A DNA stretch of 64,000 nt from Eledone cirrhosa (lineage: Eukaryota): contig OZ024742.1 in NCBI GenBank assembly GCA_964016885.1, positions 13,764,001 to 13,828,000 on the forward strand. The letters run 5' to 3'. The position numbers and the translations under genes were made by a program. The notes beneath the pieces are model-generated. The model had not been told where the DNA came from. It saw only the letters and a list, made by a program, of their open reading frames with translations, and searched no databases. Of the stretch, positions 4,603-9,437 are shown one piece after another (the first letter of the stretch is position 1; each line of letters begins with the position of its first letter).

Positions 4603-4925
4603 TAGTATGTATGTATAGGTACATACATATATGTATACAGACGTACAGTAGTATGTATATATATACATACATGCACACATATATATATGTGTACGGTTTA
4701 CCGAACATTGATTATAATGTTCGGTTTATTTGTTTGTAAACAAACAAACAGCCCGAATTACGCCGTACAGCGTTCAAGCAACCATCGTCGCCCTTTTGTT
4801 CAACACTGACACATTACTGTACGTCTGTATACATATATGTATGTACGTATACATACATACTTACATTTAAGTATCAAACGTACTAAAAGTGACAAATGAA
4901 ATTTCGATACATTCTTTTCCATTTA
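4603..4925 (+). mobile_element. Short non-coding element, family H1, copy 1 (inverted segment + 3' tail)
   Basis: 4603-4812 is the reverse complement of part of 8765-9120; it is followed by the forward tail ...GTACTAAAAGTGACAAATGAAATTTCG. Confidence 0.7.
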
Positions 4926-5030
4926 TGCATATATATATATATATATATAGTGATAAATATATATATATATAGTGACATATATATATATACGATATTAAAT
5001 AAATGGAAACTATATTTATAAAACCATATT

Positions 5031-5095
5031 TATTTCATTATACATATTTCAGGGATACCAAATTAAAATATGGTATGCCTTCATCAGACAAAATA
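5031..5095 (-). ncRNA. Type I hammerhead ribozyme (inverted copy)
   Basis: Reverse complement of 5310-5374. Confidence 0.7.
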
Positions 5096-5309
5096 CAATA
5101 TATAAACAGTTTTATAAATAATTTTGACGTACCCTATTAGATGCGACCATTATTTTTGGAAGCTGTCTGGATAGTTAGATGTTTATAATTATTTTATTAG
5201 TTAAACATTATAAACATTATAAACATCTAACTATCCAGACAGCTTCCAAAAATAATGGTCGCATCTAATAGGGTACGTCAAAATTATTTATAAAACTGTT
5301 TATATATTG

Positions 5310-5374
5310 TATTTTGTCTGATGAAGGCATACCATATTTTAATTTGGTATCCCTGAAATATGTATAATGAAATA
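5310..5374 (+). ncRNA. Type I hammerhead ribozyme
   Basis: TATTTTGT-CTGATGA-stem II (AGGcATACCA/TGGTATcCCT)-GAAA-TATGTA-TA-ATGAAATA; stem I pairs with G-U wobbles. Confidence 0.7.
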
Positions 5375-5864
5375 AATATGGTTTTATAAATATAGTTTCC
5401 ATTTATTTAGTATCGTATATCTATTCCAAAAACTTGTCGAGTGCTTTATATCAGTTATAAAATATTTACTTGTTGTATCCCAACAATTTTAAATAGAACT
5501 TTTGCATATATATATATATATATATATATATATATATATATATATAGTGATATATATATATATATATATAGTGATATATATATATATATAGTGATATATA
5601 TAGATATATAGATATATAGATATATAGTGATATATATATAGTGATATATATATATATACTTTCCCACGTATATATATATATATATATATATATATATATA
5701 TATATATATATATATATATATATATATATATATATATATATATATATATATATATATATATATATATATTTATAGTGATATACATATATATATATAATGA
5801 TATATATATAGTGATATATATATATATATATATATATATATATATATATATATATATATATATA

Positions 5865-6205
5865 AGTATGTATACGTACATACATATATGTATACAGACC
5901 TACAGTAGTATGTATATATATACATACATGCACACATATATATATGTACGTATGGATTTACCGAACATTTAATATAATGCTCGGTTTGTTTGTAAACAAA
6001 CATCCCGAATTAAGCCGTACGGTGTTTAGCAACCATCGTTGCGCTTTTGTTCAACACTGACAAAGGAACGATGTACTAGTTTCAAGCTTATTAGCTATCG
6101 TCAGCACCGTATACCTTCCTGCCAGATGATTGAACGTCTGAAAGTATATTTAAGTAAAAGCCGTACTAAGAGTGAGAAATGAAATTTCGTTTCATTTTTT
6201 CCGTA
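5865..6205 (+). mobile_element. Family H1, copy 2 (long inverted segment including the hammerhead + 3' tail)
   Basis: 5865-6146 is the reverse complement of ~8765-9058, then the forward tail AGCCGTACTAAGAGTGAGAAATGAAATTTCG. Confidence 0.75.
6068..6110 (-). ncRNA. Minimal type I hammerhead ribozyme
   Basis: Minus strand: ACGGTG-CTGACGA-TAGCTAATAAGCTT-GAAA-CTAG-TA-CATCGT. Confidence 0.75.
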
Positions 6206-6844
6206 TATATATATATAGTGATATATATATATATATATGTCTATATATATATGTAAAAATTATCGAGAATCGGATTTCACCCCATGAAATAACGAGAAAA
6301 CACTTCCGAATTGTGAGGCAAGCGGTCAATAACTCAAATGAATTAGAGCTTACAACTTACGTTAAAGGCCAAACACACTGAGACGGTGGTTAAACTAATC
6401 ATCCACACAGCGAAGATTCGATCTCCTATTTTGGGTCAAACAGATATACAGATATGAAAATATACATGTTTGATACTCACCCGGACCCCTGGAATGATGG
6501 TAAAGTCCAGTGTTGGGGTTTCTGCGGCTCCATAAGTCATTTACTGTCCACTTACATAAAGGATGTTAAGTTTCTCGTATCCTGACTGAACTAGGAGTAC
6601 GCGTTGTCAACGGGATTCAGTTCGAAAGTCCTCAGAGATGTGTCTGTAACTGACCCCACGTGGGGTTCAGCAAGGGAGGCAACACCTATATTAGGCGATT
6701 GAATTCATCTGTGTATAATATTGCGAAAATGCAAAATATCACAAATCGAATGAAGCTCTCGACAGAGTGGTTAAATAGAAACAATTATATATATATATAT
6801 ATATATATATATATATATATATATATATATATATATATATATAA

Positions 6845-7005
6845 TTGTTTCTACTTTTGGCACAAGGCCAGCTAATACGCAGTGCATTACTGGTACTTTA
6901 CTTTATCGACCCCGTAAGGATGAAAGCCAAAGTTAACCTCGGCGGGATTTGAACTCAGTCCGTAAAGGGACGTAACTGTGCTACAAAGCATGGCGTCCGA
7001 TCCTA
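6845..7005 (-). mobile_element. tRNA-derived SINE (family with the ...GCCTTTCATCCTTACGGGGTCGATAAA... domain), partial
   Basis: Matches 17819-18040 in reverse. Confidence 0.8.
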
Positions 7006-8333
7006 TATATAGTGATACATACATATATATATATATATATATATATATATATATATATATATATATAGTGATATATATATATATATATATACACTTTATA
7101 TAAATATATATATATTTATATATATATATTTATATATATATATTTATATATATATATTTATATATATATATATATATATATATATATATATATATATATA
7201 TATATATATATATATATATATAGTGATATATATATATATATATATATACACTTTATATAAATATATATATATTTATATATATATATTTATATATATATAT
7301 TTATATATATATATTTATATATATATATATATATATATATATATATATATATATATATATATATATATATATATATATATATATACACACTTTATATAAA
7401 TATATATATATGTGTGTGTATATATATATATGTATATACATTTATATAAAGTCTATATATATATGTATGTATATATATTTATATAAGGTGTATATATATA
7501 TATATTTCCATGACAATAGCATTGCTGCGAGGAAACTAGTATGTCTTACAATTAACCTTTCAGTACTATTAGTCGCTCAGGTAATTATTATTCTATTTGT
7601 TTATTTCAACGTGTAAATATAGATAACATTATCATTAGCTAATTATCTACTTCACTTTTTGAAAACAATCAATGTATACACGTGTATATATGTATGTATG
7701 TATATATATATATATATATATATATATAGTACACATATATATGTGTGTGTATATATATATATATATATGTATATATATATATATATATATATATATATAT
7801 ATATATATATATACTTTTATATATACCATATATATATATATATACTATTATATATACCATATATATACTATTAGATATACTATTATATATACCATTATAT
7901 ATACATATATATATATAATAGTATATATATATAATATATACATATATGCAATAGTATATGTATATAATATATATATATATATATATATATATATATATAC
8001 TATTATATATTATATATTATATATTATATATTATACATATAATAGTATATATATAATATATATATATATAATAGTATATATATATATATACTATTATATA
8101 TATAATAGTATATATAATAGTATATATATATATGTATACTATCATATATACCATTATATAGACTATTATATATACTATCCCGCCGAGTTCAAATCCCGCC
8201 GAGGTTGACTTTGCCTTTCATCCTTACGGGGTCGATAAAATAAAGTACATGCACACATATATATATGTACGTATGGATTCACCGAACATTTATTATAATG
8301 CTCGGTGTGTTCAACCATCTGGCAGGAAGGTAT

Positions 8334-8376
8334 ACGTTGCTGACGATAACTAATAAGCTTGAAACTAGTACAGCGT
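8334..8376 (+). ncRNA. Minimal type I hammerhead ribozyme
   Basis: ACGTTG-CTGACGA-TAACTAATAAGCTT-GAAA-CTAG-TA-CAGCGT; 6-bp stem I, palindromic stem III. Confidence 0.8.
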
Positions 8377-8801
8377 TCCTTTGTCAGTGTTGAACAAATG
8401 AGCAACGATGGTTGCTAGACACTGTTCGGCTTAATTCGGGATGTTTGTTTACAAACACACCAAGCATTATAATAAATGTTCGGTGAATCCATATGTACAT
8501 ATATATATGTGTGCATGTATGTATGTATATATATATATATATATATATATATATATATATATATATATATACATACTACTGTACGTCTGTATACATAAAT
8601 GTATGTACGTATACATACTTATATTTAAGTAACAGCCGTACTAAGAGTGAGAAATGAAATTTTGTTTCATTTTTTCCGTTTATCGTTTTTGGTGCGCCCG
8701 GCCGCTTAACTCACTCGATATGCAAATTAAGCTGCTCAGCCGTTAATATGCATAAGGAAAGTAAATACTTTCAGACGTTCAACCATCTGGCAGGAAGGTA
8801 T

Positions 8802-8844
8802 ACGTTGCTGACGATAGCTAATAAGCTTGAAACTAGTACATCGT
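8802..8844 (+). ncRNA. Minimal type I hammerhead ribozyme
   Basis: ACGTTG-CTGACGA-TAGCT AATA AGCTT-GAAA-CTAG-TA-CATCGT. Confidence 0.8.
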
Positions 8845-9437
8845 CCCTTTGTCAGTGTTGAACAAATGAGCAACGATGGTTGCTAGACACTGTACGGCTT
8901 AATTCGGGATGTTTGTTTACAAACACACCGAGCATTATAATAAATGTTCGGTGAATCCATACGTACATATATATATATGTGTGCATGTATGTATATATAT
9001 ATATATATACATACTACTGTACGTCTGTATACATATATGTATGTACGTATACATACTTATATTTAAGTAACAGCCGTACTAAGAGTGAGAAATGAAATTT
9101 CGTTTCATTTTTTCCGTTTATATATATACTATTATATATATATATTATATATATATATATATACTATTATATATATTATATATATATATATACTATCATA
9201 TATACTATTATATATGTACCATTATATATGTATATATACTATTATATATTATATATGTATACATACTATTATATATTATTTTATGTATATATACTATTAT
9301 ATATTATTTGTCTGTAAATGTACTATTATATATTATATATTATATATATACTATTATATATATACTATTATATATATTCATATATATATATATATATATA
9401 TATATATATATATATATATAAACTATTATATATACTA

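Follow-up and report, generated by a model that had tools for sequence, protein, structure and literature searches.

The 64-kb window analysed here (Eledone cirrhosa, GCA_964016885.1, contig OZ024742.1, positions 13,764,001-13,828,000 of the forward strand; contig 3 of a 3.0-Gb assembly) carries a cluster of short repeats with a hammerhead ribozyme motif, which belong to a large non-coding family. Judged from its sequence, this family is probably a non-autonomous metazoan retrozyme of the non-long-terminal-repeat (non-LTR) type, mobilized via RNA into (TA)n tracts by the enzymes of Penelope-like elements (PLEs). The layout of its insertions is regular, not a set of REARRANGEMENTS, and consists of head-to-head arms, variable inner junctions and two fixed outer ends. 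These mirror-image layouts represent a recurring insertion footprint, likely left by PLE-type enzymes, rather than the outcome of later rearrangement.

The initial annotation of the region 4603..9120 had described four clustered copies of a ~350-bp non-coding hammerhead element with a common tail. A BLAST of the unit against the window recovers four copies composed of the parts described, with a diverged tail in copy A, and the inverted parts measure 206, 291 and 66 bp (~210, ~280 and ~65 bp as annotated). The coordinates thus hold, but the copies resolve into three insertion events (A, B and C-D), and the unit is longer than had been estimated. It spans 438 bp (copy D, 8683-9120), because an 82-bp stretch between tail and ribozyme recurs in register in two tandem arrays, L030 and L019, and was therefore counted in the unit. 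Unit size ranges from 420 to 468 bp across copies, array periods include 420-433 bp, and tandem neighbours in the list of exact matches to the 31-nt ribozyme core are spaced 420-453 bp. No ATG-initiated open reading frame (ORF) longer than 63 aa was found within the units, so the family is non-coding, as annotated, and not itself an autonomous PLE. The GC content of the unit is 36.3%.

The family is abundant and dispersed. The exact 31-nt core has 10,046 matches in the genome (5,264 plus, 4,782 minus), as against none for the reversed control, and a 164-bp query from copy D yielded 189 candidates, of which all 40 that were scored showed 94-100% identity and lay on 12 contigs. The copies take three forms: tandem arrays, 5'-truncated insertions with a single arm, and two arms joined head to head, whose tails point outward. 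Further, the family is present in many short contigs of four public runs of unknown kind (13,635 in X19), although contigs cannot show expression, RNA ends or circles. In its non-coding nature, unit size, tandem and dispersed occurrence, single hammerhead per unit and low GC content, the family corresponds to the metazoan non-LTR retrozymes, as far as sequence features define that group.

The layout was read from 30 fetched loci together with the window; one of these loci is the window cluster itself, and one is its twin elsewhere on the contig. The long outer end reads ...TTTTTTCCGTTTA and then passes into the flank at unit positions 431-438. The short outer end reads ...GTATACATACTTA followed by TA repeats, with a BLAST position of 372-387 in the unit; it cannot be placed more closely because the unit itself reads TATAT at 376-380. 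In summary, the two outer ends are put at unit 436-438 and about 376-383, one on each arm. Twelve of the 18 two-armed insertions with both ends in view combine one long and one short end (L008, L013, L014, L015, L017, L021, L022, L023, L027, L029 and window insertions A and B), and none of the 18 has two long ends. At one locus, L005, both ends are nominally short, but the left arm there is a 72% match. The side bearing the long versus the short end is variable (5 vs 7), and the ten one-armed loci with an end of either class divide 5 vs 5. Inner junctions vary from locus to locus and overlap by 1-4 nt in 9 of 16 cases. The orientation of the arms is equally regular: in the first 100 genome matches listed for a 23-mer, which were not picked for likeness to copy D, opposite-strand pairs within 1 kb comprised 12 in minus/plus order and none in plus/minus order. 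With 12 of 18 two-armed loci on one plan and this one-sided count of pairs, the earlier description of the copies as 'each rearranged differently' is not supported.

The outer ends also share a target. The 16 nt outside the class ends reached or exceeded 80% (TA)n at 33 of 45 ends, compared with 549 of 9,141 sampled 16-mers from the window, which is itself TA-rich. In targets other than (TA)n the ends shift, to unit 433 in (AG)n at L026 and to 379 in (GATA)n at L023. At the loci examined, no outer end carries a poly(A) or a LINE-type (long interspersed element) 3' tail, and none lies at the predicted cleavage site (unit 156), which indicates that priming does not begin at a ribozyme-made 3' end. 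The tail between the two end sites is 58-62 nt long, and its 58-nt form contains neither TAT nor ATA. Two further candidate regularities were given up. A difference between the two arms at one base (C vs T, 7 of 7 loci) was rejected as an artefact, since choosing loci as the best matches to copy D had enriched the C, which is rare genome-wide (34 vs 8,993). An RNA 5' end near unit position 40, suggested by the inner junctions, was dropped because the enrichment was unclear (11 of about 50). In addition, scars of RNA editing showed no clear excess (A-to-G 83 vs T-to-C 61) in this sample, which is biased to copy D matches.

The ribozyme motif is well defined at the level of its core. The pattern CTGANGA-N(8-30)-GAAACTAGTA has three matches in the window and none in 100 shuffles, and the core order CUGANGA ... 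GAAA ... UH fits a type I hammerhead. Helix I is open-ended and formed by the flanks (6 bp, ACGUUG/CAGCGU). Helix II is AGCU/AGCU with a U·U at its base and the loop AAUA (AACA in a subfamily); its four pairs are intact in 53-56 of 57 sampled copies, with no covariation. Helix III consists of A-U and C-G only, with 2 nt between, and is too short to close as a hairpin within one molecule. The suggestion that a palindromic stem III suits dimers agrees with this geometry, as ACUAGU is predicted to close helix III only between two copies, where it could form 6 bp; co-folding chose the neighbouring AAGCUU instead. The three cores annotated as clean are indeed present, but compared with the family majority two of them carry a helix-weakening change (a G-to-A in helix II of C, a U/U pair in helix I of D), while B has the G·U form of helix I. 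The plus-strand cores of the tandem pair are 468 bp apart, as had been noted, and tandem copies would yield unit-length RNA if both ribozymes cut. The predicted 468-nt RNA folds at -155.3 kcal/mol (z -9.15, 100 shuffles), a value to which its TA tract contributes much. With one weakened helix in each, the C-D pair is not the best candidate for efficient double cutting. Elsewhere in the window, a 10-bp tandem repeat (AGAAACTAGT)n of ~48 copies occupies 1670-2154, and its unit equals the 3' core of the family hammerhead (GAAACTAGTA).

Two comparisons support selection on the fold. Genome-wide, the helix I pair 2.3/1.3 is U·G in 7,314 copies, G·U in 2,046, G/G in 60 and U/U in 208, so that both partners of the pair differ between the two large subfamilies, each of which keeps the pairing. 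A sister family, found as an array at L074 (7782-10000; period ~490 bp, core CTGATGATAGCTAACAAGCTTGAAACTAGTA, helix I of the G·U type), has an overall identity of 73-79% to the family. Compared with copy D, its 43-nt ribozyme block is better kept (90.7%) than the body (68.1%), the linker and tail being at 86.3% and 82.5%. The three body hairpins are also kept in this sister family while their stem letters differ, and 3 of 20 predicted pairs have changed on both sides.

The link to PLEs rests on layout. PLE insertions are strongly 5'-truncated and often form partial tandems; an adjacent inverted 5'-truncated copy often lies at the PLE 5' end, and a 30-40 bp tail is present at one end only (Craig et al. 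2021, PMC8557442). Hammerheads occur in PLE terminal repeats, and the Naiad PLEs prefer (TA)n (PMC8557442). The family has each of these layout features, including the 5' truncation, partial tandem, inverted 5'-truncated copy, one-end tail and microsatellite target as well as the terminal hammerhead; it differs from those PLEs in lacking an ORF and in the length of its tail (~58-62 nt, as against 30-40). PLEs are considered the strong candidate for mobilizing animal retrozymes, with LINEs also named as possible (Cervera and de la Pena 2020, PMC7229834).

PLEs are very abundant in the Eledone cirrhosa genome, where a GIY-YIG model gave 10,596 candidates and all 150 that were scored lay above the cut-off. 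A PLE lies in the window itself, so the earlier statement that no parent ORF is present was too strong, though this PLE belongs to a different element family and no sequence link between it and the retrozyme was found. Its ORF matches GIY-YIG at 26.5 bits (cut-off 22.6) and RVT_1 weakly at 18.4 bits, below the cut-off of 29.6. Its inverted 5'-truncated left arm (50586-51651) is 92-97% complementary to 53326-54382, both outer ends have a hammerhead-like motif, CTGAAGATTGCGAAAGCATGAAAGTACTT, close by (at 50811 on the minus and 54157 on the plus strand), and the element is bordered by TA repeats on either side, giving a head-to-head layout as in the retrozyme family. The same motif also occurs ~350-400 bp beyond PLE ORFs in five other loci. 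Where family matches were found near PLEs, two (L055, L075) are ordinary insertions, and one (L074) is the sister array, 2.7 kb from an ORF.

In the twin priming of L1 elements, an inverted 5' part and a direct 3' part meet at a junction with short overlaps, which is explained by both 3' ends of the cut target priming on the RNA. A similar course may be envisaged for the retrozyme. Tandem copies would be transcribed, and paired ribozymes, with helix III closing only between two copies, would cut after GUA to release unit-length RNA. A host ligase may circularize this RNA, as has been shown for the retrozyme RNA of other animals (PMC7229834). The reverse transcriptase and GIY-YIG nuclease of a PLE would then cut a (TA)n site, and both 3' ends of the cut could prime cDNA on the element RNA, much like L1 twin priming. 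One primer would begin at the unit end and the other at the first UAUAU upstream, leaving the 58-62 nt tail on one arm, and the two cDNAs would be joined at short overlaps. Priming at two sites would explain the combination of one long and one short end, the head-to-head arms, the (TA)n flanks and the shifted ends in other targets. The proposed course differs from L1 twin priming in the lack of poly(A), in a fixed second priming site (the first UAUAU upstream) and in arms that can exceed one unit.

For an arm to exceed one unit, either the template must have been multimeric or circular, or the arm must have grown later at the DNA level. In the L030 array, units match best three units apart (98.7% and 96.8%). 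An array on contig 1 (49584283-49588113) shows AAGCTT and AAGCGT, two variants of helix II, in strict alternation (every second unit, along 8 units); it is a two-unit higher-order repeat, and a dimeric template or DNA-level growth could give such a pattern. Neither pattern decides among multimer, circle and DNA-level growth. As for the priming itself, it is possible, although we put the chance at somewhat below even, that the strict pairing of long and short ends records a coordinated two-primer reverse transcription, in which the two 3' ends made by a PLE cut in (TA)n begin cDNA at two fixed sites, ~60 nt apart, on one and the same small ribozyme RNA.

Several observations weigh against the interpretation as a PLE-mobilized retrozyme. 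None of 51 resident PLE copies (30 GIY-YIG loci, 20 long-ORF loci and the window PLE) shows similarity to the family, so a search for an autonomous partner, as proposed in the initial annotation, gave no PLE with shared sequence, though 51 copies are a small sample relative to 10,596 GIY-YIG candidates. In this the family differs from the Xenopus retrozymes, which resemble PLE terminal repeats or termini (Li et al., 10.64898/2026.07.22.740005). Six of the 18 two-armed loci break the two-end rule (L003, L005, L018, L026, L028 and C-D), the odd end of L026 and of C-D sitting within the TA-rich tract of the unit itself. As best matches to copy D, the 30 loci form a biased sample with respect to base variants; a bias in layout is not foreseen. 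Units are about as similar within a locus as between loci (93.5% vs 92.7%), and thus the origin of one insertion from one template is not demonstrated. The covariation in helix I represents a single evolutionary event and is supportive rather than proof. At Rfam gathering thresholds the whole window gave no hammerhead and a tRNA-like match only; on 4300-9500 at E<=10 there was none among the best 150 of 178 matches, which were microRNA-like or other chance matches in TA-rich DNA, and a narrow scan reached 14.5 bits at best (Hammerhead_HH9; threshold 52, E 0.29). Thermodynamic folding of the 57-nt motif, alone or paired, returned no three-way junction.

The main alternatives concern the enzyme, the level of copying and the assembly. 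A retrozyme written into DNA by another reverse transcriptase, for example that of a LINE, with a merely convergent likeness to PLEs, would accommodate the lack of a PLE with the element's ends among the 51 copies. LINEs are counted beside PLEs as possible movers (PMC7229834), while the partial tandems, the one-arm tail, the (TA)n preference and the terminal hammerhead jointly fit the PLEs described in PMC8557442. The window PLE has the same head-to-head layout in (TA)n, and the outer ends lack poly(A) or a LINE-type 3' tail. L1-type twin priming likewise yields inverted 5' parts. On balance, we regard a non-PLE enzyme as unlikely.

Spreading purely at the DNA level, as a satellite or fold-back DNA in which the hammerhead is a passenger (through unequal crossing-over, replication template switching or extrachromosomal circles), explains the higher-order patterns of the long arrays (L030 and contig 1) well, and the whole cluster has itself been copied by a duplication of at least 23.7 kb. 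It sits badly with thousands of dispersed short insertions on many contigs that have variable 5' truncation and fixed outer ends, and with a strictly head-to-head orientation (12 vs 0 among the matches listed). The ribozyme block is kept better than the body between the sister families, and a compensatory helix I change separates two big subfamilies. Fixed ends, orientation, ribozyme conservation and the helix I change together point to selection on RNA and to end-defined copying, which makes purely DNA-level spreading quite improbable. Finally, intact head-to-tail copies might have been rearranged later by local inversions, or the layout might be an artefact of assembly, given a region rich in (TA)n and in palindromes that are hard to assemble, and the 96-99% identical twin 486 kb away, whether a true duplication or an uncollapsed haplotype. 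Yet independent loci on other contigs show the same layout and the same pair of outer ends, opposite-strand, i.e. head-to-head, family joints are also present in contigs of other public runs (e.g. record 23 of X24), and the three insertions of the window differ in junctions and age. We therefore consider rearrangement or artefact extremely improbable. The retrozyme mobilized by PLE enzymes remains our preferred interpretation.

The three insertions of the window and the window PLE are listed in Table 1.

Table 1. Positions of the retrozyme insertions, their parts and the PLE in the 64-kb window.
Feature	Position	Strand	Remarks
Insertion A, inverted arm	4606..4811	-	unit 168-377, without ribozyme; outer end in (TA)n; oldest copy
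Insertion A, direct arm	4809..4925	+	unit 327-438; diverged tail 4877-4906, 4/30 positions differ
Insertion B, inverted arm	5857..6147	-	unit 83-383; short-type outer end at 5857 in (TA)n
Hammerhead core of B	6074..6104	-	CUGACGA..GAAA..GUA; helix I of the G·U subfamily
Insertion B, direct arm	6145..6207	+	unit 376-438, tail only; long-type outer end
Insertion C-D, inverted arm	8246..8311	-	unit 240-307, short; adjoins SINE-like fragment
Copy C	8309..8682	+	5'-truncated unit (95-438); longer internal (TA)n
Hammerhead core of C	8340..8370	+	helix II G-to-A: AACU vs AGCU
Predicted 468-nt RNA	8371..8838	+	between predicted cleavage sites after A8370 and A8838
Copy D, full 438-bp unit	8683..9120	+	linker 8683-8764, body hairpins, internal (TA)n, tail 9063-9120
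Hammerhead core of D	8808..8838	+	helix I strands 8802-8807/8839-8844; pair 2.3/1.3 = U/U, rare unpaired state
Tail	9063..9120	+	on one arm only of a two-armed insertion; 9-bp hairpin, T6 run
Window PLE	50586-54382	+	ORF 51681-53768, 695 aa; element family different from the retrozyme

The ribozyme is missing from copy A because the corresponding part of the unit lies outside both arms. A is 82.6% and B 92.7% identical to unit D (D itself 100%), and a tail 30-mer, searched with at most one mismatch, has three matches in the window, at 6160, 8635 (1 mismatch) and 9073. Since junctions and identities to unit D differ, A, B and C-D are not copies of one another, and the cluster is the result of repeated insertion into one TA-rich stretch. 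The possibility of segmental duplication, raised in the initial annotation, thus does not apply to the four copies among themselves. It does apply to the cluster as a whole: window positions 3-23742 are collinear with contig 3 13278131-13301999, 486 kb upstream, at 96.4-98.7% identity, and this twin region represents a true segmental duplication or, alternatively, a haplotype left uncollapsed in the assembly. All three insertions lie inside one 10-kb aligned block, at 96.4% identity, and the cluster is hence older than the duplication of at least 23.7 kb (or the uncollapsed haplotype).

Other repeats surround the cluster. Between A and B, 4981-5424 forms a near-perfect palindrome with 216-nt arms that are 98% complementary and 12 nt apart. 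Each arm carries a second hammerhead-like motif, CTGATGAAGGCATACC...CCCTGAAATATGTA (5087 minus, 5318 plus), and a related motif occurs at 12984, as well as adjoining the L010 insertion. The sequence of this palindrome suggests that a different family of ribozyme repeats has inserted here head to head. Fragments resembling short interspersed elements (SINEs) occur in opposite orientations at 6860-6990 (plus) and 8180-8240 (minus), one of them adjoining the left arm of C-D. The tRNA-like match at the Rfam threshold lies at 15084-15141 (29.2 bits). Dozens of sub-threshold Rfam microRNA matches fall in 4300-9500, such as mir-297 and, at 80.7 bits on the palindrome (5123-5282), mir-5014; most likely, hairpin-forming repeats are matched here by chance. 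In annotation, the family's TA-rich hairpins yield many such false microRNA-like matches. Satellites and simple repeats occupy 1-1407, 23373-34284 and 38387-42450 (a 38-bp unit in 37 copies, a 33-bp unit in 330 copies, and TA/CA-rich DNA), and these repeats account for very long 'ORFs' that stay open in several reading frames.

Comparison with known systems places the family close to the metazoan non-LTR retrozymes, whose non-coding units measure 150-450 bp, occur in tandem or dispersed, are low in GC and contain a single type I hammerhead; these retrozymes lack long terminal repeats, a primer-binding site and a polypurine tract, and co-exist with PLEs (PMC7229834). Among these, amphibian retrozyme hammerheads whose helix III is very weak show much better cutting when the construct is dimeric, and the axolotl HHR_Amex2, which performs better as a dimer, resembles the family in its helix III of 2 bp and in the U·U at the helix II base (PMC7229834). 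In contrast to the retrozymes described there, the helix III 'loop' of 2 nt does not allow closure within one molecule, and the family is known from DNA alone. The satellite 2 hammerheads of newts and salamanders are similar in their weak helix III, palindromic cap and tandem units of a few hundred bp; they cut in a dimer-dependent manner (PMC7229834), and the family hammerhead is predicted to do likewise. The family differs from satellite 2 in its sequence and animal group, and many of its copies, instead of forming long satellites, are short dispersed insertions. PMC7229834 makes no mention of a head-to-head layout with two fixed ends, and the word 'inverted' is absent from it. A literature search for a head-to-head retrozyme layout found retrozymes, among the papers listed, only in Craig et al., which is not proof that the layout is unpublished.

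Animal retrozymes have already been described, and so have PLE-linked hammerheads; Cervera and de la Pena, in 2014, reportedly found PLE terminal repeats to contain minimal hammerheads. The element is thus ordinary in type, and what the present analysis adds is the insertion footprint and the helix I counts. The compensatory helix I change argues for selection on the fold in multiplying lineages, despite the lack of an Rfam call. The regular footprint supports, from genome sequence, a link between retrozymes and PLEs that is proposed but not shown in the papers cited, and the two fixed ends together with the (TA)n target give a concrete, testable model of priming. If this model is true, the thousands of copies in the Eledone cirrhosa genome (10,046 exact cores) would be a record for reading the PLE integration mechanism, so far undescribed, and the same copies would let the proposed partnership between PLEs and retrozymes be read and tested.

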